Positions 16,457 to 30,399 of a stretch of DNA of 64,000 bases are shown one piece after another. How positions within the stretch are numbered: position 1 is the stretch's first letter; each line of letters begins with the position of its first letter. The position numbers and the translations under genes were made by a program. This stretch comes from Escherichia coli (GTDB lineage: Bacteria > Pseudomonadota > Gammaproteobacteria > Enterobacterales > Enterobacteriaceae). The notes beneath the pieces are model-generated. The model did no database searches, was not told the origin of the DNA, and saw only the letters and a program-made list of their open reading frames with translations. The stretch lies in NCBI RefSeq assembly GCF_013122565.1, contig NZ_CP053258.1. One strand, written 5' to 3'.

Positions 16457-16650
16457 TAGCGCGTGCAGGAAAGTCAATTCAGGTTCCCCACTAACCAACT
16501 GAATTGTGGGAAGATTGCTTTATCAGGCTTAATACAAGCCATTCGGTAACAGTTTTTCTCGCTCCCGCCCTGTCACTCCTGTTGATTGTGCAATGTTACA
16601 AAAATGCTTCATTTTTGTTGATTTTCTACTGTGATCAATTCGGCAATATC

Positions 16651-16703
16651 CTCTCCTGAATTTCACCAGACTACTTCCAGCCCATTCGCAATATCAGGAG
16701 AGA
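16651..16703 (+). promoter_or_regulatory. Leader inverted repeat (ctctcctga ... tcaggagag) overlapping the Shine-Dalgarno of the acyl-CoA ligase gene
   Basis: 9-bp perfect inverted repeat; both arms preceded by gcaatatc; 3' arm contains the AGGAG RBS 4 nt upstream of ATG 16707. Confidence 0.35.
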
Positions 16704-16706
16704 CAA

Positions 16707-18263
16707 ATGAGCAGCACCTCCGCCGACTTCCAGAATTTGTATCAGGCACTGAGTCACAGCGCCGCCCGCAGTCCGAATGACCTGGCGCTGGCGTTTGAGG
16801 ATCAGCGCTATATGTACCGCGATTTTCACCTGCGGGTACAGCGGACGATGGCGCAACTTGACCGCAGCTGGTCGTTGCGCAAAGGCGACCGGATCCTGCT
16901 GGCCCTGGGGAATCATCCCGCTTTTTGCGAAGTCCTTTTTGCGGCAGTTGGTCTGGGCATCGAGGTGGTGCCTTTCAGCACTAAGCTTAAGCAGGCCGAG
17001 AGCGAGGAGCTGGTGGGTCATATCGCGCCCCAGGTCGTGCTGTTCGATGCAACCGTGCAGGACTGGCTGAAAAACACCCCCAACGCGCGCGCTGTTTCAC
17101 TTAGTGAATGGCTGGCGCTTTCTCTTCCCGAACCGCTGACTCGCCTGCCGGCCCAGGTTAACCGCGACGACACGGCGGTGATGATGTTTACCTCAGGTAC
17201 TACCGGGGAGCCAAAAGGCGCGATTATCACCCACCATAATCTGCTCTGCGCGATTGACGCCTATACGCAAAAACTGAATCTGACCGCTGCGGATAGCACT
17301 ATTCTGGCGGTGCCTATTTATCACATCACTGGCCTGTCGGCGCTGCTGGCGCTGTTTATTAGCCTTGGTGCGAGCATCTGGCTGCAACACCGGTTCAATG
17401 CCTCGCAGGTGATCAATACCCTGCGCGAGCAAAATATTACCTTTCTGCACGGCTCGCCAACCATCTTTATCCTCCTATGTCAGGCGGCACGCGAAATAAG
17501 CGACAGCCATCCGGGCGATTTTCCCGCGCTACGGACGATCGCTTGCGGTGCGGGCCACCTGAGCGACGGCCTTATCAAAGAGTTAAAAACGCTGTTCCCG
17601 CATACGGCAATTCAGCCGATCTACGGGCTCACCGAAACGACCTCACCCGCGACGATTTTTCCAGGCGACGTCTGGGGTAGCGAGAAATGCGGCAGTTCGG
17701 GCCAGGCGATCCCCGGCCTCACGATTACGATTCGCAACGATCGCCAGCAACGTCTCCCTGCCGGACAAATTGGGCATATCTGGCTGAAAGGCGATGTGGT
17801 CATCCGCGAGTACTGGCAGCACAGCGAAAGACGCCCGAGCTGCGATGAACAGGGCTGGTTTTGTACGGGTGATTTGGGCTATCTCGACGACGAAGGCTGG
17901 CTGTACATCAAAGACCGCAGTAAAGACATGATCAATCGCGGTGGGGAGAAAATTTACTCTCTGGAGCTGGAAAACATTCTCTCTACCTATCGGGGAGTAC
18001 GGGAAGTCGCCGTGATCCCGGCCCCCAGCCCGCTCTATGGTGAAGAGCCGGTGGCGTTTATCGTGCCGGACGGTCAACACCACCTGACAAGCGAAGAGAT
18101 CCTCTGCTGGCTGAAGGTCAAAATTGCCCGCTTTAAGCTTCCGGCACGCATTATTTTCACCCGCATTTTACCCCGTACCCATAACGGAAAAGTGAGCAAA
18201 CAACAGCTCAAAACACGCCTTGCGGAATCGATCATCACGTTATCAACGGAGGATAAACAGTGA
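16707..18263 (+). CDS. AMP-dependent synthetase / acyl-CoA ligase (class I adenylate-forming enzyme)
   Basis: 518 aa; AMP-binding motif TSGTTGEPKGA, downstream GYGLTE-like and adenylation core motifs. Confidence 0.85.
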   Translation: MSSTSADFQNLYQALSHSAARSPNDLALAFEDQRYMYRDFHLRVQRTMAQLDRSWSLRKGDRILLALGNHPAFCEVLFAAVGLGIEVVPFSTKLKQAESEELVGHIAPQVVLFDATVQDWLKNTPNARAVSLSEWLALSLPEPLTRLPAQVNRDDTAVMMFTSGTTGEPKGAIITHHNLLCAIDAYTQKLNLTAADSTILAVPIYHITGLSALLALFISLGASIWLQHRFNASQVINTLREQNITFLHGSPTIFILLCQAAREISDSHPGDFPALRTIACGAGHLSDGLIKELKTLFPHTAIQPIYGLTETTSPATIFPGDVWGSEKCGSSGQAIPGLTITIRNDRQQRLPAGQIGHIWLKGDVVIREYWQHSERRPSCDEQGWFCTGDLGYLDDEGWLYIKDRSKDMINRGGEKIYSLELENILSTYRGVREVAVIPAPSPLYGEEPVAFIVPDGQHHLTSEEILCWLKVKIARFKLPARIIFTRILPRTHNGKVSKQQLKTRLAESIITLSTEDKQ

Positions 18264-19852
18264 GTAACAAATTTATCAGCGCCCATGAAGCGGCGCAGTT
18301 AGTCACCAGCGGCGATACCGTCTGCACCGTCGGGATGACGCTTATCGGCGCGGCAGAATCCATTTTAGCGGCCATTGAAGCGCGCTTTCTGACCGAGGGC
18401 ACACCGCGCGATCTGACATTGTTACATGCCGCAGGGCAAAGCGATCGGCAGCGCGGCATTCAGCACTTCGCCCATCAGGGAATGGTGACGCGGCTTATCG
18501 GTTCGCACTGGGGCCTTGCGCCGCGCTGGATGGCGATGATCAACAACAACGAAGTGGAAGCCTGGTGCCTGCCGCAGGGGCAGATCGTCCATCTTTATAG
18601 CGCGATGGCCGCCGGACTTACAGGGCGACTCTCCCCCGTCGGGCTGGGTACTTTTGTCGATCCGCGCATAGAAGGCGGGCGGATGAATGCCCGTACCCGC
18701 GAAAAGCCAGATCTGATTGAGCATGTGATGTTTCGCGGCGACGAGTATCTGTTTTATCCAGCCATTCCCCTGAACGTCGTCATTGTGCGCGGAACTCATG
18801 CCGATGAAGACGGCAACCTCACTACGGATGAAGAGGTCATGAAACTGGAAGTTCTGCACGCGGTTCTCGCCGCCAGACGTTACGGGGCGAAGGTGCTGGC
18901 GCAGGTGAAATATCGTGTGGCGAAAGGTTCGCTGCATCCGAAAAGCGTCACCGTTCCTGGCAACCTGATCGATGCCATTGTGGTGTGCAACGAGCCGCAG
19001 ACGGATCACCGCCAAAGCTCCAGTTGGGACTTCGATCCGGCACTGTGCGGCGATATCCAGTTGCCCGCAGCGCAGAATGCGCCGCTGCAACTCGACCTGC
19101 GCAAACTTATCGGGCGGATCGCCTGCCGCTATCTGACGCCCGGCTGTGTCATCAATCTTGGCACCGGGATCCCCAATGATGTGATTGGCGCCATCATCCA
19201 TGAAGAACAGCTCGGCGAGCAAGTCACCATCACCGTTGAATCGGGGATCTACGGTGGGCAGCAGGCGGGCGGCGTTGATTTTGGTATCGGTCGTAATCTG
19301 AGCGCGATGATAAGTCACCAGGATCAAATGCTCTATTACAACGGCGCGGGCGTCGATATCACCTTTATGGGTGCCGGCGAGATGGATCCGCACGGTCACG
19401 TCAACGCCACGCGGCTCGGTGCATCCTGCCCCGGCGCAGGCGGTTTTATCGACATCACGCAGAATGCCCGCCACGTCGTGTTCTGCTCCTCTTTTACCGC
19501 CAAAGGGCTGGAGATTGCCTGTGAAAATGGGCAGTTGCATATCCTGCGCGAAGGCGAGGTACGTAAGTTCGTCGCCGGGGTTAATCAGATTTCTTATAAC
19601 GGTGAGCTGGCCCGCAACAAAGGCCAAACCATGCATTACGTCACCGAACGGGCAGTGTTCGAACTACGTCCGCAGGGACCGGTGCTGACGGAAATCGCCC
19701 CCGGCATCGATCTTGAGCGCGACATCCTGGCACATATGGATTTTCGTCCGGCTATCGCCGGGGATCTTAAGGTAATGGACAGCCGTTTATTTGCCCCGCA
19801 GCCCTGTGGCCTGGCGGAACATCTGTCCCACAATTCATCCTCTGACTCATAA
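18260..19852 (+). CDS. Family I CoA-transferase, fused alpha/beta (YdiF-like acyl-CoA:acetate/3-ketoacid CoA transferase)
   Basis: 530 aa; architecture and ESG glutamate region resemble E. coli YdiF; GTG start overlaps ligase stop by 4 nt with GGAGGA SD. Confidence 0.8.
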   Translation: MSNKFISAHEAAQLVTSGDTVCTVGMTLIGAAESILAAIEARFLTEGTPRDLTLLHAAGQSDRQRGIQHFAHQGMVTRLIGSHWGLAPRWMAMINNNEVEAWCLPQGQIVHLYSAMAAGLTGRLSPVGLGTFVDPRIEGGRMNARTREKPDLIEHVMFRGDEYLFYPAIPLNVVIVRGTHADEDGNLTTDEEVMKLEVLHAVLAARRYGAKVLAQVKYRVAKGSLHPKSVTVPGNLIDAIVVCNEPQTDHRQSSSWDFDPALCGDIQLPAAQNAPLQLDLRKLIGRIACRYLTPGCVINLGTGIPNDVIGAIIHEEQLGEQVTITVESGIYGGQQAGGVDFGIGRNLSAMISHQDQMLYYNGAGVDITFMGAGEMDPHGHVNATRLGASCPGAGGFIDITQNARHVVFCSSFTAKGLEIACENGQLHILREGEVRKFVAGVNQISYNGELARNKGQTMHYVTERAVFELRPQGPVLTEIAPGIDLERDILAHMDFRPAIAGDLKVMDSRLFAPQPCGLAEHLSHNSSSDS

Positions 19853-19863
19853 GGAAATTAACT

Positions 19864-20598
19864 ATGAAACTAGCCAGTAAAACGGCCATTGTCACCGGCG
19901 CCGCGCGCGGTATCGGATTTGGTATTGCCCAGGTGCTTGCGCGAGAAGGTGCCCGAGTCATCATCGCCGACCGCGACCCACATGGCGAAGCCACTGCCGC
20001 ATCCCTGCGCGAACAGGGTGCCCAGGCGCTGTTTATCAGCTGCAATATTGGCGATAAAACGCAGGTTGAAGCGCTGTTTTCCCAAGCCGAAGAAGCGTTT
20101 GGCCCGGTGGATATTCTGGTTAATAACGCCGGTATCAACCGCGACGCCATGTTGCACAAACTCACTGAAGCGGACTGGGACACGGTGATTGACGTCAATA
20201 TGAAGGGCACGTTTCTCTGTATGCAGCAGGCGGCAATCCGTATGCGCGAGCGCGGCACGGGCCGCATTATCAATATCGCTTCCGCAAGCTGGCTTGGCAA
20301 CGTTGGGCAAACCAACTATTCGGCGTCAAAAGCGGGCGTGGTCGGGATGACTAAAACCGCCTGTCGCGAACTGGCAAAAAAAGGGGTCACGGTTAACGCC
20401 ATCTGCCCCGGTTTTATTGATACCGATATGACGCGCGGCGTCCCGGAAAACGTCTGGCAAATCATGATCAACAAAATTCCTGCGGGCTACGCCGGGGAGG
20501 CGAAAGACGTTGGCGAGTGTGTGGCGTTTCTGGCGTCCGACGGCGCGCGCTATATCAATGGTGAAGTGATTAATGTCGGCGGCGGCATGGTTCTGTAA
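19864..20598 (+). CDS. Short-chain dehydrogenase/reductase (FabG-like 3-oxoacyl / 3-hydroxyacyl oxidoreductase)
   Basis: 244 aa; TGAARGIG cofactor motif, catalytic YSASK (YxxxK); AAGGA SD. Confidence 0.85.
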   Translation: MKLASKTAIVTGAARGIGFGIAQVLAREGARVIIADRDPHGEATAASLREQGAQALFISCNIGDKTQVEALFSQAEEAFGPVDILVNNAGINRDAMLHKLTEADWDTVIDVNMKGTFLCMQQAAIRMRERGTGRIINIASASWLGNVGQTNYSASKAGVVGMTKTACRELAKKGVTVNAICPGFIDTDMTRGVPENVWQIMINKIPAGYAGEAKDVGECVAFLASDGARYINGEVINVGGGMVL

Positions 20599-20608
20599 GG
20601 GGAAAAAG

Positions 20609-21799
20609 ATGATACAGGCTAATGATATTGTGGTGGTCAGCGGCGTCCGTACCGCTATTGGCACGTTTAATGGCAGTCTTAAGCATACCCACCAGCATGA
20701 CCTGGGGGCAGCGGTCATTCGCGAAGCGGTCAGCCGCGCCGGACTTGCGCCGAAAGATATCGATGAAGTGATCGTCGGCAACGTTGGGCAAATCGCCGAA
20801 AGCGGTTTTATCGCCCGCATCTGCCAGCTTCGGGCGGGGATCCCGCAGGAAAGTACCGCGTATTCGGTTAACCGCCAGTGCGGCTCCGGTCTACAGGCCC
20901 TGGCAGACGGCATGATGCAGCTACAAAGCGGTCAGGCCGATGTCGTCGTCGCCTGCGGAACTGAAAATATGACCCAACTGCCCTACTACCTGCGTAAAGC
21001 GCGGGATGGCTATCGCATGGGTCATGGCGAGCTGGAAGATGGTCTGATTTCTATCCTCACCTGGCCTGAAGGGCCTTATCACAACGGCATCACGGCGGAA
21101 AACGTCGCGCAACAGTTCGGGATCACCCGCGAAGCGATGGACGATTTCGCCTGGTCAAGCCAGCAGAAGGCGCTGAAAGCCATCGCGCAGGATCGCTTTC
21201 GCGAACAGATCCTGCCCCTTGAAGTGCCGGACGGCAAAAAAGCCTCCCGCCTGTTCGCGGTTGATGAACACCCGCGTGACACCCCACGCGAAAAGCTCGC
21301 CACGCTGCGACCGGCATTTAAAGCCGACGGCGTGGTGACGGCAGCCAACTCATCCGGCATTAACGACGGTGCGGCTGCGCTGGTGATGATGACCCGTCAG
21401 CAGGCGGAAAAGCGTGGCTTAACCCCACTAATGCGGATCCGCGGCTGGGCGGTTGCCGGCTGCGGCGCAGATATCATGGGCTTTGGCCCTGCTCCCGCGA
21501 CCCGGCGTCTGATGGACCGTCTCAATATGGATGTCCACGCCATAGATTTAATTGAACTCAATGAGGCCTTCGCCGCCCAGGCGCTGGCGGTGATGAACGA
21601 TCTGCGTCTCGATCCGGCCCGCGTCAACGTTAATGGCGGCGCAATCGCCCTCGGACACCCGGTGGGTGCCAGCGGTGCGATCTTGCCGGTCAAACTCATG
21701 TATGAAATGGCGCGCAGCGGTGCACGTACCGGTCTGGTCACGATGTGCATCGGCGGCGGTCAGGGAATTTCTATGCTGTTCGAGCGCGAAGGCGCTTAG
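20609..21799 (+). CDS. Thiolase (acetyl-CoA C-acyl/acetyltransferase)
   Basis: 396 aa from MIQANDIVVVSGVRTAIG; active-site NRQCGSGLQA, C-terminal GHPVGASG and CIGGGQG motifs; track ORF begins 12 codons earlier. Confidence 0.85.
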   Translation: MIQANDIVVVSGVRTAIGTFNGSLKHTHQHDLGAAVIREAVSRAGLAPKDIDEVIVGNVGQIAESGFIARICQLRAGIPQESTAYSVNRQCGSGLQALADGMMQLQSGQADVVVACGTENMTQLPYYLRKARDGYRMGHGELEDGLISILTWPEGPYHNGITAENVAQQFGITREAMDDFAWSSQQKALKAIAQDRFREQILPLEVPDGKKASRLFAVDEHPRDTPREKLATLRPAFKADGVVTAANSSGINDGAAALVMMTRQQAEKRGLTPLMRIRGWAVAGCGADIMGFGPAPATRRLMDRLNMDVHAIDLIELNEAFAAQALAVMNDLRLDPARVNVNGGAIALGHPVGASGAILPVKLMYEMARSGARTGLVTMCIGGGQGISMLFEREGA

Positions 21800-21807
21800 G
21801 AAAAGAC

Positions 21808-21830
21808 GGCCCGAAGTGGGGCTTCGGGCC
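21808..21830 (+). other. GC-rich hairpin (ggcccgaag tgggg cttcgggcc) between thiolase and MFS genes; no U-tract
   Basis: 9-bp perfect stem with 5-nt loop 9 nt after thiolase stop. Confidence 0.4.
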
Positions 21831-21934
21831 GAGCGTCGTTCGGGCCAGTACCCGGCGACAACCTATGAGCTGACGAACGGGATCGTGTCGATCCCGGCAA
21901 GGCTTCTGACCACGAATACGGGGAAATAATAACC

Positions 21935-23272
21935 ATGTCCGCAATAAATGAAAAGGTGATAAACGGGACGCAGCTACAACGCACCCATAAAAAGATCTAC
22001 CGCCATTTGATGCCGCTACTTATCGTGGCGTACATCATAAGCTTTATTGATCGTACCAATATCGGCATGGCGAAAGCGACCATGTCGGTGGATATCGGCC
22101 TTTCCGCAACCGCATTCGGCCTCGGAGCCGGGTTGTTTTTTCTCACCTACGCAGTGCTGGAGATCCCAAGCAACCTGTTTTTAACCCGAATTGGCGCGCG
22201 GCGCTGGATCGCCCGCATCATGATCACCTGGGGAATCATCTCCTGCGGCATGGCGTTTGTCACCGGACCTACGTCATTTTACGTGATGCGCTTATTGCTC
22301 GGCGCCGCCGAAGCGGGGCTGTATCCGGGCATTATCTACTACCTGACCCTTTGGTTTGGTCGCGAAGAGCGCGCGAAAGCCACCGGCCTTTTCCTGCTGG
22401 GGGTCTGTCTGGCCAATATTATCGGTGCGCCGCTGGGCGGATTGTTATTAAACCTTGATGGTATGTCCGGCTGGCACGGCTGGCAGTGGATGTTTTTTAT
22501 CGAAGGGCTGCCTGCGATACTGCTGGCGTTTGTCGTCTGGCGCAAGCTGCCGGATAAACCTGCCGATGCTCGCTGGCTGGACAGCAACGACGTGCAGGCC
22601 ATTAACGCGGTGCTGGAGAAAGAAGCGCAAGAGACGCGTCATACACCAAACCGCTTCTCCCTCAAAACCGCACTCACCACCCGCGTATTTTTGTTGCTGG
22701 TGCTGATTTACTTTACCCACCAGTTTTCAGTTTACGGCCTGAGTTATTTTCTGCCGGGGATCATTGGTAGCTGGGGCCAGCTTACGCCGCTGCAGATAGG
22801 TCTGCTGACCGCTATCCCGTGGATTGCAGCGGCGGCTGGCGGCATCCTGCTGCCGCGTTTCGCCCGGACGGAACAGCGTTCACGCAGAATGCTGATGGCC
22901 GGATACCTGGTCATGGCCACCGGCATGGCGATTGGTGCAATTTCCGGTCACGGCGTTGCGCTGCTTGGCTTCTCGCTGGCCGCTTTCATGTTCTTCGCTA
23001 TGCAATCCATCATCTTTAACTGGCTCCCCTCGATCATGAGCGGGCATATGCTGGCGGGTAGCTTCGGCCTGCTTAACTGCCTTGGTCTGTGCGGAGGCTT
23101 TCTCGGGCCGTTTATTCTCGGTGCGTTTGAGGATCGAACCGGCGCGGCAACGTCAGGTTTATGGTTCGCCGTCGGGCTGTTGATTGTCGGCGCGTTGGTA
23201 TCTCTGTTCATCAAAGGTTCGTCATCCCTGGGCCATGCTTCGGCAAAACAGGCCTGTGGCGAAAAAGCTTAA
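21935..23272 (+). CDS. MFS transporter, anion:cation symporter (ACS) family-like (hydroxy-acid/aldonate-type permease)
   Basis: 445 aa, 12 predicted TM segments, FIDRTNIG motif typical of ACS-family permeases. Confidence 0.75.
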   Translation: MSAINEKVINGTQLQRTHKKIYRHLMPLLIVAYIISFIDRTNIGMAKATMSVDIGLSATAFGLGAGLFFLTYAVLEIPSNLFLTRIGARRWIARIMITWGIISCGMAFVTGPTSFYVMRLLLGAAEAGLYPGIIYYLTLWFGREERAKATGLFLLGVCLANIIGAPLGGLLLNLDGMSGWHGWQWMFFIEGLPAILLAFVVWRKLPDKPADARWLDSNDVQAINAVLEKEAQETRHTPNRFSLKTALTTRVFLLLVLIYFTHQFSVYGLSYFLPGIIGSWGQLTPLQIGLLTAIPWIAAAAGGILLPRFARTEQRSRRMLMAGYLVMATGMAIGAISGHGVALLGFSLAAFMFFAMQSIIFNWLPSIMSGHMLAGSFGLLNCLGLCGGFLGPFILGAFEDRTGAATSGLWFAVGLLIVGALVSLFIKGSSSLGHASAKQACGEKA

Positions 23273-23285
23273 TTAAGAGGTTCTT

Positions 23286-24164
23286 ATGCGCATCGAAGTC
23301 TTACTGGATTTAAAAACACGGCTCGGTGAAAGCCCGGTCTGGGATGTCGAACAACAGCGCCTTTGGTGGGTGGACAGCCTTGATGGACGCCTGTTTGCCT
23401 GTAATGCGCAGGGCGGCGCGATTAAGAGCTGGGATGTACGGCAGAAAATTGGCTCTTTTGCCCTACGCCAGAACGGGGAAGGCGCGGTGGTGGCGCTTCA
23501 AAATGGCGTTCATCTGCTCGACTTCGCCAGCGGCGAGCTGACGCTGCTGCACCACCCGGAAGCGGACCGCCCCTTTAACCGACTTAACGATGGCAAAGTC
23601 GATCGTCAGGGACGCTTTCTGTTCGGGTCAATGGATATGCGCGAGGAGGAGCCGAGCGGCGCGCTGTATCGCCTGGACGCCGATCTATCACTGCACGTAC
23701 TGAAGAAAAATATCATCGTCTCCAACGCCCCCTGCTGGAGTCCATCCGGCGAGACGTTTTATTTTGCCGATACCTGGTCGGGCAAAATCCGCGCCTGGGA
23801 TTACAACACCGCGACCGGAGATATCTCCGCAGAACGGCTCTTTTGCCATGTCGATCGCAGCGAAGGCGGCGCAGCGGATGGTGCTACCGTGGACAGCGAA
23901 GGGTGTCTGTGGAATGCGCTGGTCTACGCGGGCAAGTTAGTACGCTACACGCCGGAAGGGCAGATTGATCGCATCATTGAGATGCCGGTGAAAAAAGTCA
24001 CCAGTGTGATGTTCGGCGGCGAAAATCTCGACGTGCTGTACGTCACTTCAATGGCGCAGCCGCCCCTGGCGCGTTTCCCGGAAGATAATCAGTTGCGTGG
24101 CAGCCTGTTCGCCATTTACGACCTGGGCGTGACCGGCGTTGCGGAACGGCGTTTTGCCGGATAA
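23286..24164 (+). CDS. SMP-30/gluconolactonase/LRE-family lactonase (regucalcin-like beta-propeller)
   Basis: 292 aa; family motifs SPVWD, NDGKVDRQGRF, DGATVDSEGCLW; AAGAGG SD. Confidence 0.8.
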   Translation: MRIEVLLDLKTRLGESPVWDVEQQRLWWVDSLDGRLFACNAQGGAIKSWDVRQKIGSFALRQNGEGAVVALQNGVHLLDFASGELTLLHHPEADRPFNRLNDGKVDRQGRFLFGSMDMREEEPSGALYRLDADLSLHVLKKNIIVSNAPCWSPSGETFYFADTWSGKIRAWDYNTATGDISAERLFCHVDRSEGGAADGATVDSEGCLWNALVYAGKLVRYTPEGQIDRIIEMPVKKVTSVMFGGENLDVLYVTSMAQPPLARFPEDNQLRGSLFAIYDLGVTGVAERRFAG

Positions 24165-24254: not shown

Positions 24255-25592
24255 ATGACAACACTCAATCAAATACCTGCCAGCAAACGCGATGGAAAAA
24301 AGCGGCTGATCCACCGTTTCTCCTGGGTTTCATTGCTGGTTTGCTGGCTTATCTGGGTGCTCAACGCCTACGATCGCGAGATGATCCTGCGCCTTGGCCC
24401 GGTGATTTCTAAGGAGTTCTCGCTCTCGCCGGAACAATGGGGGAACGTCGTAGCACTGATTATGGTGGCCCTTGCGGTGCTGGATATCCCGGGCGCCATC
24501 TGGAGCGATCGTTACGGATCAGGCTGGAAGCGAGCACGCTTTCAGGTGCCGCTGGTGCTGGGCTACACCGCGTTGTCTTTTATCTCCGGGATAAAAGCTG
24601 TCAGCCACGGTCTGACGACCTTTGTATTGCTGCGCGTTGGGGTCAACCTCGGGGCTGGCTGGGGCGAGCCCGTCGGCGTCAGCAACACCGCAGAGTGGTG
24701 GCCGAAAGAGAAACGCGGTTTCGCGCTGGGGGTGCATCATACCGGTTATCCCATTGGCGCACTGCTAAGCGGTGTCGTGGCAAGCCTGGTACTTTCCACA
24801 TTTGGCGAAGGTAACTGGCGCTACTGTTTCCTGCTGGCGCTGATCGTCGCTATTCCGCTGATGCTCTTCTGGGCGAAATATTCCACCGCCGCCCGAATCA
24901 ACACGCTTTATCAGCATATCGATAGTCAGGGAATGACGCGCCCGGCGACGCAGGAAAGCAATCATGTTGCGAAAGGCGAAGGGCTGAAAACGTTTTTACG
25001 TACCCTGCGCAATCGCAATATTTCGCTGACGGCAGGCAATACTCTGCTGACGCAGATTGTCTATATGGGCATTAACGTTGTGCTGCCGCCGTATCTTTAT
25101 CATGTCTCCGGCCTGTCGCTGGCAGCATCCGCCGGGATGAGTATTATCTTTACGCTTACTGGTACTCTGGGGCAGATAATTTGGCCCTGGCTGTCCGACA
25201 GTTTTGGTCGTAAACGTACCCTGATTGTCTGCGGTCTGTGGATGAGTATCGGCATTGCACTGTTCTATTTCGCCACGAATATGCCGCGCCTTATCGCCAT
25301 TCAGCTATTTTTTGGACTGGTGGCAAACGCCGTGTGGCCTATCTATTACGCAATGGCCTCGGACTCCGCCGAAGAACGCGCCACCTCTACTGCAAACGGA
25401 ATTATCACCACGGCAATGTTTATTGGCGGTGGCATTTCGCCATTGCTCATGGGCTGGCTAATTCAGCTTGGTGGGGGTTGGGAAAACCCGGCGGGTTATA
25501 TCTACGCCTTCTTTACGATGGCGGGATGTGCGCTGCTGGGGATGCTGTTGCAGTTAATGACCAGTGATAAAACGCCGCGCAAAGCGCATTAA
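24255..25592 (+). CDS. MFS transporter (second permease of the cluster)
   Basis: 445 aa polytopic protein with MFS loop motif (SDRYGSGWKR), GGAG SD. Confidence 0.75.
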   Translation: MTTLNQIPASKRDGKKRLIHRFSWVSLLVCWLIWVLNAYDREMILRLGPVISKEFSLSPEQWGNVVALIMVALAVLDIPGAIWSDRYGSGWKRARFQVPLVLGYTALSFISGIKAVSHGLTTFVLLRVGVNLGAGWGEPVGVSNTAEWWPKEKRGFALGVHHTGYPIGALLSGVVASLVLSTFGEGNWRYCFLLALIVAIPLMLFWAKYSTAARINTLYQHIDSQGMTRPATQESNHVAKGEGLKTFLRTLRNRNISLTAGNTLLTQIVYMGINVVLPPYLYHVSGLSLAASAGMSIIFTLTGTLGQIIWPWLSDSFGRKRTLIVCGLWMSIGIALFYFATNMPRLIAIQLFFGLVANAVWPIYYAMASDSAEERATSTANGIITTAMFIGGGISPLLMGWLIQLGGGWENPAGYIYAFFTMAGCALLGMLLQLMTSDKTPRKAH

Positions 25593-25605
25593 TTCAGGAG
25601 AACGC

Positions 25606-25728
25606 ATGAAGATTGTTATCGCGCTGGATCCTTTTAAGAGTCGGCTCCTCGCAGACGCTGCGGAGAATGTTATACGAACCTTTGTGAGCGGACGACGCAA
25701 AGAGAAACATAAGCGGATGACCTTATGA
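25606..25728 (+). pseudogene. 40-codon ORF resembling the N-terminus of glycerate kinase (GarK/GlxK-like remnant), translationally coupled (ATGA) to the CdaR-family gene
   Basis: Translation MKIVIALDPFKSRLLADAAENVIRTF... resembles the MKIVIAPDSFKESLSA N-terminus of glycerate kinases (recalled from memory); strong AGGAG SD; stop overlaps cdaR-like ATG. Confidence 0.35.
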
Positions 25729-26882
25729 TTATTACGACGGCGCTGGCTAATGAAATTGTCACCAGGGCGATGGCAATCATTCATCATAACGTGAACGTAA
25801 TTGACCATTATGGACAGATCATTGCCTCAGGTGAACGGCATCGTATCGGCGAGCAACATGAAATCGCCCGTGAGGTGATACGCACGGGTAAACGCATTTG
25901 TATTAACAACGCTGCTGAAGCCGCGCGTTTTAAGAATGTGCTTCCGGGTATTAATCATCCCATTATCTATGACGATCGCGTGGTGATGGTTGTGGGTATC
26001 AGCGGCGATCCCGCAGCGATCAGCCGCTATGCTGAACTGGCGGTGCTCACCGCCGAGCTGCTGGTCCGCCAGGCCGCCGAGATGCAAGAAACCAACTGGC
26101 GACAGCGCCTGCGCGATACCTTGTTTTGTCAGTATCTTGAGCAAGGTACCTCGCCCGCCGGGCAGGAATCACTCCATCGCCTGCTCGAAACTGGCTTCGC
26201 TTTTGATGCGCCGCTGGTACCAGTCGTCGTATCAGTGCAGGTTGAGCAGCACCAGCTAAGCGAAATTTTAAGTACGCTGCTGCGGGAGTTCTCCCGGTTG
26301 GCCGGGGTAAGAGACGTTATTTTGCTCGGCAGCAATGAGATTTTACTCCTCAATACGCTGAGCGAACCGCAGGAAACATTGCTGCGCAGCATTGAGTTTG
26401 TTCTTAGCAATCAGATCAGTCATTACCATATCGGGATAGGCGTACAGGCGGATAGCGCCCCGGATATTCGCGAGGCCATCAGATTCGCCCGTTCGGTGAT
26501 TGAAGTTGGGAGCAAAGTGCAGCCACAGCGGCAGATCTACTATTTTCGCGAAATGGCCATGCTCTGCCTGTTCCGGGTACTGGAAGACAGCTATATGGTG
26601 AATTTTTTTATCAATAATGTCCGCCAGTTGCTTGAACATGATTCTGGCGAAGTGCTGCTGGATACCCTGAGCAGCTTTATTGCCAATAACGCAGAGCTGG
26701 GTAAAACATCGCTGCTGTTGGGTATTCACCGCAATACGCTCACCTATCGTCTACAGCAGATAAAAAAGCATATCCAGCTCGATCCGATGGTCTTCACCGA
26801 CCTGACGCAACTGGCGGTGTCGGTACACTGCTATCGTCGGCAGAACCCGCGCCAGAGCGAATGGATCGATAGCTTAAGTTAA
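25725..26882 (+). CDS. CdaR/SdaR-family (sugar diacid regulator-like) transcriptional regulator
   Basis: 385 aa; N-terminal diacid-regulator domain and C-terminal PucR-type HTH; overall architecture like E. coli CdaR. Confidence 0.8.
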   Translation: MIITTALANEIVTRAMAIIHHNVNVIDHYGQIIASGERHRIGEQHEIAREVIRTGKRICINNAAEAARFKNVLPGINHPIIYDDRVVMVVGISGDPAAISRYAELAVLTAELLVRQAAEMQETNWRQRLRDTLFCQYLEQGTSPAGQESLHRLLETGFAFDAPLVPVVVSVQVEQHQLSEILSTLLREFSRLAGVRDVILLGSNEILLLNTLSEPQETLLRSIEFVLSNQISHYHIGIGVQADSAPDIREAIRFARSVIEVGSKVQPQRQIYYFREMAMLCLFRVLEDSYMVNFFINNVRQLLEHDSGEVLLDTLSSFIANNAELGKTSLLLGIHRNTLTYRLQQIKKHIQLDPMVFTDLTQLAVSVHCYRRQNPRQSEWIDSLS

Positions 26883-26930: not shown

Positions 26931-26972
26931 AAATGTCGGATGCGCCACTGGGCACATCCGACAATCTTTTAT
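26931..26972. terminator. Bidirectional hairpin terminator between the cdaR-like gene and cynX
   Basis: tgtcggatgcgcc actg ggcacatccgaca stem (one mismatch) flanked by T-rich tracts on both strands; REP-like sequence. Confidence 0.6.
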
Positions 26973-27003: not shown

Positions 27004-28158
27004 TCATGCCTCTTTGACCCACAGCTGCGGAAAACGTGCTGGTGCAAAACGCAGGGTTATGATCATCAGCCCAACGACGCACAGCGCATGAAATACCCAG
27101 TCCATCAGGTAATTGCCGCTGATACTACGCAGCACGCCAGAAAACCACGGGGCAAGCCCGGCGATGATAAAACCGATCCCCTGCATAAACGCCACCAGCT
27201 TGCCAGCAATAGCAGGTTGCACAGAGTGATCGAGCGCCAGCAGCAAACAGAGCGGAAATGCGCCGCCCAGACCTAACCCACACACCATCACCCACAATAC
27301 CGGCAATTGCAGCGGCAACCAGATAAAGCCGCAGAACCCCACCAGTTGTAACACCAGCGCCAGCATTAACAGTTTGCGCCGATCCTGATGGCGAGCCATA
27401 GCAGGCATCAGCAAAGCTCCTGCGGCTTGCCCAAGCGTCATCAATGCCAGCAAGGAACCGCTGTACTGCGCGCTGGCACCAATCTCAATATAGAAAGCGG
27501 GTAACCAGGCAATCAGGCTGGCGTAACCGCCGTTAATCAGACCGAAGTAAAGGCCCAGCGTCCACGCGCGGGGAGTGAATACCACGCGAACCGGAGTGGT
27601 TGTGGTCTTGTGAGAAGAGGCGACCTCGCGGGCGCTTTGCCACCACCAGGCAAAGAGCGCAACAACGGCAGGCTGCGCCCACCAGGCGAGTGTTTGATAC
27701 CAGGTTTCGCTATGTTGAACTAACCAGGGCGTCAGGGCGGCACCAAGTCCACCGCCGCCCATCAGAGCCGCGGACCACAGCCCCATCACCAGTGGCGTGC
27801 GCTGCTGAAACCGCCGTTTAATCACCGAAGGCATCACCGCCTGAATGATGCCGATCCCCACCCCACCAAGCAGTGCGCTGCTAAGCAGCAGCGCACTTTG
27901 GGGGTAAAGCTCACGCATCAATGCACCGACGGCAATCAGTAACAAACTGATGGCGACGCTGCGACGTTCGCTGACATGCTGATGAAGCCAGCTTCCGGCC
28001 AGCGCCAGCCCGCCCATGGTAACCACCGGCAGAGCGGTCAACAGGGCAGCCACGCTAAAGCTCATTCCGCTTGCCTGGCGCAATTGCGGTAGCAGTGGCC
28101 CGACGGAGGTGAGCAGTGGTCGCATATTAAGACCAATCAGCACCAGAACCAGCAGCAT
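27004..28158 (-). CDS. cynX: Cyanate MFS transporter
   Basis: 384 aa from MLLVLVLIGLNMRPLLTSVGPLL; follows cynS. Confidence 0.9.
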   Translation of the reverse strand: MLLVLVLIGLNMRPLLTSVGPLLPQLRQASGMSFSVAALLTALPVVTMGGLALAGSWLHQHVSERRSVAISLLLIAVGALMRELYPQSALLLSSALLGGVGIGIIQAVMPSVIKRRFQQRTPLVMGLWSAALMGGGGLGAALTPWLVQHSETWYQTLAWWAQPAVVALFAWWWQSAREVASSHKTTTTPVRVVFTPRAWTLGLYFGLINGGYASLIAWLPAFYIEIGASAQYSGSLLALMTLGQAAGALLMPAMARHQDRRKLLMLALVLQLVGFCGFIWLPLQLPVLWVMVCGLGLGGAFPLCLLLALDHSVQPAIAGKLVAFMQGIGFIIAGLAPWFSGVLRSISGNYLMDWVFHALCVVGLMIITLRFAPARFPQLWVKEA

Positions 28159-28190
28159 CGTGAACGTCTTTTGATGGTTACGCATGGCTG

Positions 28191-28679
<489 letters not shown>

Positions 28680-28691
28680 TTAAAAATAAGG

Positions 28692-29351
28692 TTACGCTGC
28701 GGTTGGCTGGCGTAGCGGTATGGCACAAACGCGAGGATTAGCGGCCAGTGGCACAAACTGGCGGGTTGCGCCGTCAAACGCTGCGATGCTGCCGCTTTCA
28801 ATGTCGTAGACCCAGCCGTGCAGGGCGATCCGCCCCTCTTCGAGCGCCAGGCGCACCGATGGATGAGTTTGCAAATTAGCCAACTGAGCAATGACGTTTT
28901 CACGTACCATCGCCGCAGCTTTTGACGGTAAATCGGAATGCGGGCGCGCCTCATTAACGACGCGGGCTGAATCGGCATAACGCAGCCAGTGGGAGACGGC
29001 AGGCATATGGTCCATGCACTGACAGTTGGCAATGGCGGTCATCGCGCCACAGTTGGAATGACCGCAAATCACAATGTCAGATACCCGAAGCGCAGCGACG
29101 GCATACTCCACCGAAGCAGAAACGCCACCGGGTTCCGGCCCGTAGGAAGGGACAATATTACCTGCGTTGCGAATAACGAACAGATCGCCAGGCTCACGTT
29201 GCGTCACCAGCTCAGGGACCAGACGGCTGTCGGAGCAGGAGATAAAAAGGGTGCGCGGGCTTTGCTGTGTCGCCAGCTGTTTAAATAAGGCTTCCCGCTT
29301 CGGAAATGCCTCGCGCTGGAATTTAAGGAATCCATCAATAATCTCTTTCAC
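28692..29351 (-). CDS. cynT: Beta-class carbonic anhydrase
   Basis: 219 aa, beta-CA motifs CSDSR and HSNCGA. Confidence 0.93.
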
Positions 29352-29460
29352 CGTTAACCTCTGTCTGTCTCTGGAATGAGAGGCAGACTACTCGCCGATT
29401 GTCATAAGGTAAAAGTCTCATTTATGATGAGTTCTATTGGATTTACTTATAGGTTGGCGA
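29352..29460. promoter_or_regulatory. cynR / cynTSX divergent promoter region (LysR-type control region)
   Basis: 109-bp AT-rich spacer between divergent cynT and cynR starts. Confidence 0.5.
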
Positions 29461-30360
29461 ATGCTCTCTCGACATATCAATTATTTTCTTGCCGTGGCTG
29501 AACATGGCAGCTTCACCCGTGCCGCCAGTGCGTTGCACGTCTCTCAGCCTGCGCTTTCCCAGCAGATTCGCCAGTTAGAGGAGAGTTTAGGCGTGCCGCT
29601 GTTTGACCGTAGCGGGCGAACAATTCGTCTCACTGATGCAGGAGAAGTCTGGCGACAGTACGCCAGCCGGGCGTTACAGGAACTGGGAGCGGGTAAACGG
29701 GCGATTCATGATGTTGCCGATCTGACGAGAGGATCGCTGCGTATCGCCGTCACCCCCACCTTTACGAGCTACTTTATCGGCCCCTTAATGGCGGATTTCT
29801 ATGCGCGCTATCCCGGCATCACGCTCCAGCTACAGGAAATGTCGCAGGAGAAAATCGAGGATATGCTTTGCCGCGACGAGTTGGACGTTGGGATTGCCTT
29901 CGCGCCTGTGCATTCGCCGGAGCTGGAGGCAATTCCTTTACTGACAGAAAGTTTAGCGTTAGTCGTGGCGCAACATCATCCGCTGGCAGTCCATGAACAG
30001 GTGGCGTTGAGTCGCTTGCATGATGAAAAACTGGTACTGCTCAGCGCGGAATTTGCCACCAGAGAGCAAATTGACCACTACTGCGAGAAAGCGGGGCTGC
30101 ATCCACAGGTGGTCATTGAGGCGAACTCAATTAGCGCGGTTCTGGAGCTGATTCGCCGCACTTCCCTTTCCACATTGTTGCCAGCAGCGATTGCCACACA
30201 ACATGACGGGCTTAAAGCTATATCCCTTGCCCCACCGTTACTGGAGAGAACGGCGGTTTTGTTGCGGCGGAAAAATAGCTGGCAGACAGCCGCCGCGAAG
30301 GCATTTTTACACATGGCGTTGGAAGAATGTGCGGATGTTGGCGGGCATGAATCACGGTAG
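29461..30360 (+). CDS. cynR: LysR-family activator of the cyn operon
   Basis: 299 aa from [41 protein letters not shown]. Confidence 0.9.
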
Positions 30361-30381
30361 CCACTGACACAGGTCAGTGGC
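30360..30381. terminator. Bidirectional hairpin terminator between cynR and codA
   Basis: gccactgac acag gtcagtggc perfect 9-bp stem in the 39-bp spacer between convergent genes. Confidence 0.6.
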
Positions 30382-30399
30382 TCTTCAACGCAGAGGAAA

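Follow-up and report, generated by a model that had tools for sequence, protein, structure and literature searches.

A conserved hairpin between the enzyme and transporter genes of a deoxyribonate-utilization cluster is a candidate minus-strand terminator of a predicted cis-antisense RNA

What is the function of a perfect, GC-rich hairpin that lies between two genes read in the same direction and is not followed by a run of T residues? This question is raised by the gap between a thiolase gene and the first of two MFS transporter genes in the 64-kb stretch of DNA analyzed here (the window). The hairpin (H1) had been described in an initial annotation as a perfect 9-bp GC-rich stem without a subsequent T-run, and the letters of the window bear out this description. 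The arms GGCCCGAAG (21808 to 21816) and CTTCGGGCC (21822 to 21830) enclose the loop TGGGG (21817 to 21821), and the sequence that follows on the plus strand is AGCGTCGTTCGGGCC. An additional pair, C21807-G21831, lengthens the stem from 9 to 10 bp. The spacing needed slight correction: the stem had been placed 9 nt from the thiolase stop codon and 105 bp before the next gene, whereas the distance from the stop codon is 7 to 8 nt (8 nt with the 9-bp stem), and the MFS ATG at 21935 lies 104 nt past the stem, within a gap of 135 nt. The folding energy of H1 was -18.9 kcal/mol on the minus strand and -20.1 kcal/mol on the plus strand (ViennaRNA energies).

The genes surrounding H1 (Table 1) form the Klebsiella deoxyribonate-utilization cluster, which has been described genetically in K. 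michiganensis M5al (PMC6365646). In that organism, deoxyribonate is converted to a CoA ester, oxidized, and cleaved by thiolase, and the first MFS gene, whose role as the deoxyribonate transporter is taken from that work, had the strongest transporter phenotype (Price et al. 2019, PMC6365646). The first MFS protein of the window is 95 to 96% identical to its counterparts in K. oxytoca, K. grimontii, and K. pneumoniae, and the gene order in the annotated K. pneumoniae copy is identical to that of the window. The deoxyribonate locus was not found in the E. coli genomes searched. Between the second MFS gene and the CdaR-type regulator (25593 to 25727), the window contains the remnant of a glycerate kinase gene with an internal deletion of ~1.06 kb relative to K. 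oxytoca (L001 9724 to 10781 missing). In this remnant, an open reading frame of ~40 codons, only the start of the gene (a few codons, MKIVIALD...) and its 3' end survive; the gene is intact in K. pneumoniae, K. oxytoca, and M5al. Next to the cluster, at 27004 to 30360, lies a cyanate operon: its minus strand encodes a cynX-like MFS protein, cyanase, and carbonic anhydrase, and a LysR-type regulator gene diverges from these on the plus strand. At the corresponding place, K. pneumoniae (L200) carries genes for an oxidoreductase and a LysR protein.

Upstream of the acyl-CoA synthetase ATG at 16707, the motifs TTGTGCAAnGTTACAA, TTTTGTTGATTTTnTnnTGTGA, and CCAGACTnC are strongly conserved across genera in a region (~16585 to 16660) that is otherwise unalignable. 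These motifs are probably the operator and promoter of the operon, and strongly conserved motifs of this kind were found only upstream of the first gene. Within them lies an AT-rich hairpin with perfect pairing, ACAAAAATG-CTT-CATTTTTGT (16598 to 16618). Two further strong hairpins each lie in a gap where genes converge, one downstream of the regulator gene (TGTCGGATGTGCC-CAGT-GGCGCATCCGACA, 26934 to 26963) and one downstream of the LysR gene (AGCCACTGAC-ACAG-GTCAGTGGCT, 30359 to 30382). In contrast to H1, both look like ordinary convergent or bidirectional terminators.

Table 1. Genes and candidate signals at the deoxyribonate cluster (positions in the window)
Feature	Position	Strand	Description
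Acyl-CoA synthetase	16707-18263	plus	
CoA-transferase	18260-19852	plus	
FabG-like SDR	19864-20598	plus	
Thiolase stop codon TAG	21797-21799	plus	Gene ~20609-21799, last of the CoA-enzyme block
U-rich tail of candidate minus-strand terminator	21799-21806	minus	TCTTTTCC on minus, GGAAAAGA on plus; abuts the stem
Hairpin H1	21807-21831	minus	10-bp GC-rich stem, 5-nt loop (plus TGGGG, minus CCCCA)
Hairpin H2	21835-21859	unassigned	GUCGU-CGGG / CCCG-GCGAC
Hairpin H3	21878-21896	unassigned	CGGGATCG-TGT-CGATCCCG
Predicted cis-antisense non-coding RNA, ~120 nt	21799-21919	minus	Inferred from promoter-like site and terminator; hairpins H3', H2', and H1' (terminator)
MFS Shine-Dalgarno and start codon	21920-21937	plus	GGGGA 21920-21924, ATG 21935-21937
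Sigma-70-type promoter-like site	21926-21954	minus	-35 TTTTCA (21954-21949), 17-nt spacer, -10 TATTAT (21931-21926)
First MFS transporter	21935-23272	plus	Directly after the H1 gap
SMP-30-type lactonase	23286-24164	plus	
Second MFS transporter	24255-25592	plus	
CdaR-type regulator	25725-26882	plus	

Chance formation of H1 was ruled out both by shuffling and by conservation. Five perfect hairpins of at least 10 bp were observed in the window against 0.47 expected from dinucleotide-preserving shuffles, and the chance expectation of such a hairpin per 135-nt gap was ~0.001. For the analysis of conservation, orthologous loci (designated by L numbers) were collected by a genome scan and by protein-guided look-ups; they span Klebsiella, Raoultella, Franconibacter, [Erwinia] mediterraneensis, Enterobacterales CwR94, Affinibrenneria, Shimwellia, a Serratia, Providencia rettgeri, and further assemblies. 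Among six divergent genomes, pairwise identity was 0.944 in H1, compared with 0.55 to 0.58 at third codon positions of the thiolase and MFS genes and just 0.55 in the spacer between the stop codon and the stem. The thiolase-MFS gap as a whole had an identity of 0.745, and the next gap (MFS-lactonase) 0.38. As judged from these alignments, H1 is under strong purifying selection.

The pairing of the stem is conserved along with its sequence. Compensatory changes were found at three stem pairs, one of which occurs as AU in six, UA in five, and CG in two sequences, while two basal pairs change from GC to AU and from CG to AU. Paired bases occupied 92% of the alignment cells of H1, compared with 21 to 47% when the partner was slid. 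From Klebsiella to Providencia the loop hardly changes: it is TGGGG in 14 of 16 lineages, TAGGG in L205, and CCTGG in L203. A complementary, covarying partner for the TGGGG loop was not seen in the gap, in the operon leader (as a CCCCA-type sequence), or in the MFS Shine-Dalgarno sequence. H1 is always situated 5 to 17 nt past the thiolase stop codon, while its distance to the MFS start ranges from 30 to 125 nt.

Three copies of the locus have individual histories. In Shimwellia blattae (L201 2949 to 3000), the thiolase-MFS gap is 52 nt long and lacks H2 and H3 through deletion; H1 has become degenerate (AGCCAGAG-TGGGG-CTTCAGGC), and no minus-strand -10 element is left. The TGGGG loop and the ribosome-binding region are retained. 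On the K. pneumoniae plasmid pJNQH373-1 (L212, NZ_CP091979.1, 3363 to 4946), the cluster has been captured by an IncFIB/IncHI1B replicon, and ISKpn1 (IS3 family) is inserted within H1, between GTGGGGCT and GGCTTCGGG, where 4 bp (GGCT) appear to be duplicated; this insertion parts the thiolase and MFS genes. In a metagenome bin labelled Firmicutes, a contig of 20.6 kb (L003, JAJUHI010000021.1, labelled MAG Sporobacter termitidis) carries a Klebsiella-type cluster with 94% protein identity and an intergenic region identical to that of the window. It is probably a mis-binned enterobacterial contig.

Several known classes of element were set aside. H1 is not a dispersed repeat of the REP/BIME type: the motif is present in a single copy in the 64-kb window, even when three mismatches are allowed, and in a metagenome scan for GGCCCGNNGTGGGGCNNCGGGCC every enterobacterial match was this locus, the remainder being unrelated high-GC DNA. 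No Rfam family reached its gathering score in the window (the best match at E values up to 10 was ar7, with 13.7 bits against a gathering score of 60), and a covariance model of the region matched this locus only. A selenocysteine or readthrough signal is contradicted by the variation of the stop codon among TAG, TAA, and TGA. No conserved open reading frame was found on either strand of the gap; stop-free stretches exist, but their frames and peptides are not kept. A small protein or leader peptide was rejected for both strands, as frames are not maintained and the lengths of the indels are not divisible by three.

A function of H1 at the level of DNA, either as a palindrome bound by a protein such as the CdaR-type regulator, or as a target of recombination or insertion, appears most improbable. 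The perfect dyad would suit such a role, the compensatory changes also keep dyad symmetry, and an insertion sequence did enter H1 on the K. pneumoniae plasmid. However, the center of the dyad is asymmetric yet invariant, the arms of 9 to 10 bp are GC-rich and unlike those of typical operators, and H1 is single-copy. Further, H1 does not resemble TTGTGCAAnGTTACAA or TTGTTGTGA, the motifs conserved in the promoter region of the operon, and is thus unlikely to be the operator of the regulator.

For terminator polarity, both strands were scored by the d'Aubenton-Carafa method (tail function and d-score) with ViennaRNA energies; the absolute values should be taken as approximate. The plus-strand tail was U-poor in all 12 distinct sequences, with scores of 1.6 to 2.5 against a background mean of 2.04 in the window, and the d-score was negative or marginal (-13 to +2.4). 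A plus-strand intrinsic terminator was therefore excluded: the GC-rich stem-loop is present, but the U-tract is absent in every lineage. The initial annotation had correctly recognized a structured element at the boundary between CoA-enzyme and transporter genes, but its proposal of a partial terminator is, for the plus strand, not supported by these scores, and terminator prediction instead assigns minus-strand polarity.

On the minus strand, H1 is directly followed by a U-rich tail that extends into the complement of the thiolase stop codon. A consensus scan found H1 to be terminator-like on this strand only, with 10 pairs, eight of them G-C, and the tail TCTTTTCCTA. The tail score in the window was 3.73, above the 95th percentile of the window (3.19), and ranged from 3.5 to 4.8 in 13 of 15 orthologous sequences; by comparison, just 6% of the 15-mers that follow stop codons in the window scored 3.5 or higher. 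The minus-strand d-score was +23.9 in the window and +16 to +44 in 10 of 12 distinct sequences. L205 and L206 keep H1 and the promoter-like site described below and have poor U-tails (d-scores of +1.4 and -6.9). The sequence of the spacer drifts between lineages (GAAAAGA, AGAAAAA, AAGAAGAA, CGAGAA, GCGAAA, GCAGAAA), but it is A-rich on the plus strand throughout, with the A-run directly against the stem and not against the stop codon, including in L202 and L207 with their longer spacers. This conserved composition is what a minus-strand U-tail predicts, and nothing on the plus strand requires it. The minus-strand stem-loop with its adjoining U-rich tail has the sequence features of an intrinsic terminator.

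A terminator on the minus strand would need a transcript to terminate, and a sigma-70-type promoter-like site was found on that strand by the consensus scan, with 9 of 12 consensus matches. It overlaps the MFS initiation region, with the -10 element 4 to 9 nt upstream of the ATG and the -35 element in codons 5 to 7. The same arrangement, TTTTCA (TTTGCA in Providencia) followed by 17 nt and TAnnnT, is present at the same position in 15 of 15 H1-bearing sequences. The -10 element occurs as TATTAT, TACTAT, TACTCT, TAGTAT, TAAAAT, and TAAGAT, with T1, A2, and T6 constant. The site is absent from L201 of Shimwellia, where H1 is degenerate, from L203, where the hairpin is replaced, and from L209, which has no hairpin; it is weaker in L208 (7 of 12). 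Matches by the scan criterion occur about once per 2.8 kb per strand. Because the site overlaps both the AT-rich MFS initiation region and the N-E-K codons 5 to 7, its conservation could also reflect translational or protein constraint. The predicted start of transcription is ~G21919, and the promoter-like site is positioned ~95 nt upstream of H1. Neither the H1 sequence nor the promoter sequence occurred in the searchable part of the Klebsiella tiling-array, TSS, sRNA, and RIL-seq supplements.

Our leading interpretation, to which we give somewhat less than an even chance, is that H1 is the intrinsic terminator of a cis-antisense RNA of ~120 nt that spans the thiolase-MFS intercistronic region. 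An active promoter, an RNA end near 21800, and the role outlined next are inferences. In the proposed mechanism, the minus-strand promoter and the H1 terminator would delimit a short non-coding RNA that is fully antisense to the intercistronic segment. This RNA would pair with the operon mRNA, probably first through the complementary hairpin loops, and pairing of its 5' end could reach the base beside the MFS Shine-Dalgarno sequence. Pairing may lower or uncouple the expression of the transporter. In addition or instead, the duplex may be cleaved, which would leave the enzyme and transporter halves of the mRNA with different stabilities. A role in mRNA stability or processing, the other possibility raised in the initial annotation, would also follow from the antisense-RNA model. 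The near-invariance of the H1 loop counts against this interpretation, as it is not something that a terminator requires.

The same terminator and promoter evidence is compatible with a simpler arrangement, in which the minus-strand terminator only insulates the thiolase operon from spurious antisense transcription that begins in the AT-rich MFS initiation region, and the resulting short RNA has no regulatory function. AT-rich initiation regions readily give rise to promoter-like sites. We nevertheless consider insulation alone improbable, since a working terminator would suffice for it and neither the near-invariance of the stem and loop nor the conservation and covariation of H2 and H3 would be accounted for. 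Moreover, untranslated antisense transcripts are normally dealt with by Rho.

The main rival to the antisense-RNA interpretation is that H1 acts on the plus strand as a hairpin of the intercistronic mRNA. Because the flanking genes are co-directional and conserved promoter motifs are found solely upstream of the first gene, H1 must be part of the operon mRNA. There, without a U-tract, it would not terminate transcription; it could also hinder exonucleases that approach from the 3' side. In this rival account, H1 would block 3'-to-5' exonucleases after an endonucleolytic cut downstream, or it would cap the 5' end of the transporter segment after a cut in the A-rich spacer. The enzyme and transporter genes would thereby obtain different mRNA stability, and no minus-strand RNA would be involved. 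H1 has one hallmark of a stabilizing or processing element, namely, a stable hairpin just 3' of a cistron within a polycistronic mRNA. The account also fits the fixed distance of H1 from the thiolase stop codon, as opposed to the variable distance to the MFS start, and a stem pair in Shimwellia that forms as G-U in plus-strand RNA, where minus-strand RNA would have A-C. Overall, wobble-pair counts are similar on both strands, and G-U versus A-C pairs do not assign the strand.

A hairpin behind the thiolase gene is also found where H1 itself is missing. L203 has a hairpin of different sequence at this position. In L208 to L211 (Citrobacter sp. RHB25-C09 and Serratia fonticola), the cluster is rearranged to the order acyl-CoA synthetase, MFS, CoA-transferase, SDR, thiolase, glycerate kinase, and regulator; it is devoid of the lactonase and the second MFS gene, and the gap before the MFS gene is AT-rich and without H1. 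In the mutually identical Citrobacter-type copies L210 and L211, in which the gene that follows thiolase is that for glycerate kinase, an unrelated 7-bp GC hairpin (CGGAGGC-GCAC-GCCTCCG, L210 6444 to 6461) lies 9 nt past the thiolase stop codon. The post-thiolase gap of the rearranged cluster was read in the Citrobacter copy alone. The presence of a hairpin after the thiolase stop codon without the minus-strand promoter, both in L203 and in the Citrobacter-type cluster, hints at a plus-strand role tied to the 3' end of the thiolase gene. However, a plus-strand hairpin leaves unexplained the selected A-run at the stem, the conserved promoter-like site on the minus strand, and the better fold of that strand. 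Stabilizers normally need pairing alone, yet the sequences of both the stem and the loop of H1 are nearly invariant. We regard a purely plus-strand stabilizer as possible but doubtful. The near-invariant TGGGG loop is explained by neither the antisense-terminator nor the plus-strand stabilizer model.

The remainder of the gap is also structured. H2 is conserved in Klebsiella, Raoultella, Franconibacter, [Erwinia] mediterraneensis, CwR94, Affinibrenneria, L204, and L202, with a compensatory change from GGG/CCC to GGA/UCC in L202. The loop of H3 varies freely, including in Klebsiella metagenome copies, while its stem covaries, with changes from GC to CG and from GC to AU in L007. Both hairpins are kept, with compensatory changes, in L204 and the Klebsiella-to-Affinibrenneria group and in part in L202, and the gap contains the conserved unpaired linkers CAACC, GAGCTG, and GACC. 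H2, H3, and the linkers are missing in L205, L206, L207, and Shimwellia. Since H1 is kept in these four, it forms the conserved core of the region. The fold of the interval from 21799 to 21919 was better than that of shuffled sequences by z-scores of -3.9 to -4.1 on the minus strand, compared with -2.6 to -2.8 on the plus strand. Measured against shuffles, the minus strand had the more negative z-score in 11 of 13 lineages, with means of -4.08 for the minus strand and -2.94 for the plus strand.

The conservation of the whole 135-nt gap, which far exceeds that of the next gap, could be explained if the three covarying hairpins and the linkers formed a cis-regulatory leader on the plus strand that binds a ligand or protein through a UGGGG loop and controls transporter expression. 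The near-invariance of this loop and the lack of a match to any known Rfam family are consistent with such a leader. However, H1 persists in lineages that lack H2, H3, and the linkers, no expression platform was seen in the form of a plus-strand terminator or of convincing, stable sequestration of the Shine-Dalgarno sequence, the plus strand folds only weakly better than shuffles (z-scores of -1.8 to -2.8), and the cluster encodes no RNA-binding protein. A riboswitch-like leader was set aside for the first two of these reasons, and a plus-strand leader in general appears unlikely. In a variant of this idea, H1 with its UGGGG loop would itself be the core of an undescribed cis-acting regulatory RNA on the plus strand, which is recognized by a protein or ligand and sets transporter expression; H2 and H3 would be elaborations in the Klebsiella group, and the terminator features of the minus strand would be secondary. 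We consider this variant distinctly unlikely.

Should the antisense RNA exist, the recently described acyl-CoA pathway for deoxyribonate catabolism (Price et al. 2019, PMC6365646) would have built-in control at the level of RNA. This control would lie exactly at the junction of the enzyme genes with the gene for the transporter, and it is the loss of this transporter that impairs growth most. It would add a new case of antisense-directed discoordinate operon expression outside E. coli. As the element is absent from Rfam, it would also constitute a new RNA annotation entry for Klebsiella, Raoultella, Franconibacter, Providencia, and their relatives. More generally, where a terminator hairpin without a U-tract is found between co-directional genes, the other strand should be read before it is called a partial terminator.

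In comparison with known systems, H1 resembles a canonical Rho-independent terminator in its GC-rich 10-bp stem, its short loop, its adjacent U-rich tail on the minus strand, and its positive d-score. It differs in that both flanking genes are read from the plus strand, no annotated gene on the minus strand would be terminated by it, and the plus-strand U-tract is missing, and in that the stem and loop are far more conserved than termination demands. Intercistronic stabilizer hairpins are exemplified by the REP sequences between malE and malF and by the hairpins of the puf operon of Rhodobacter. H1 shares with them its stability, its position shortly past a stop codon within a polycistronic transcript, and its place between genes that are likely needed at different levels. 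Unlike the REP sequences, however, H1 is single-copy, and the selected A-run 5' of the stem and the promoter-like site on the opposite strand are superfluous to a stabilizer model.

Two antisense RNAs are closer in layout to the candidate described here. AmgR of Salmonella is transcribed from the mgtC-mgtB intercistronic region; like AmgR, the candidate would start at a gene boundary inside an operon and is proposed to modulate the neighboring cistrons, whereas AmgR is ~1.2 kb long and overlaps the coding region, and the candidate is ~120 nt long and limited to the non-coding gap. GadY of E. coli is a cis-encoded antisense sRNA in the gadX-gadW intergenic region, and its outcome is the processing of the bicistronic mRNA and an altered stability of the two halves. 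The candidate differs from GadY in that it has no similarity to it in sequence (no Rfam match), is known here from its sequence, has a promoter that overlaps the downstream start codon, and belongs to a catabolic operon that is absent from E. coli. Both, however, would be short non-coding RNAs with their own promoter and an intrinsic terminator (both predicted for the candidate), encoded opposite two co-directional genes and complementary to the region between them.
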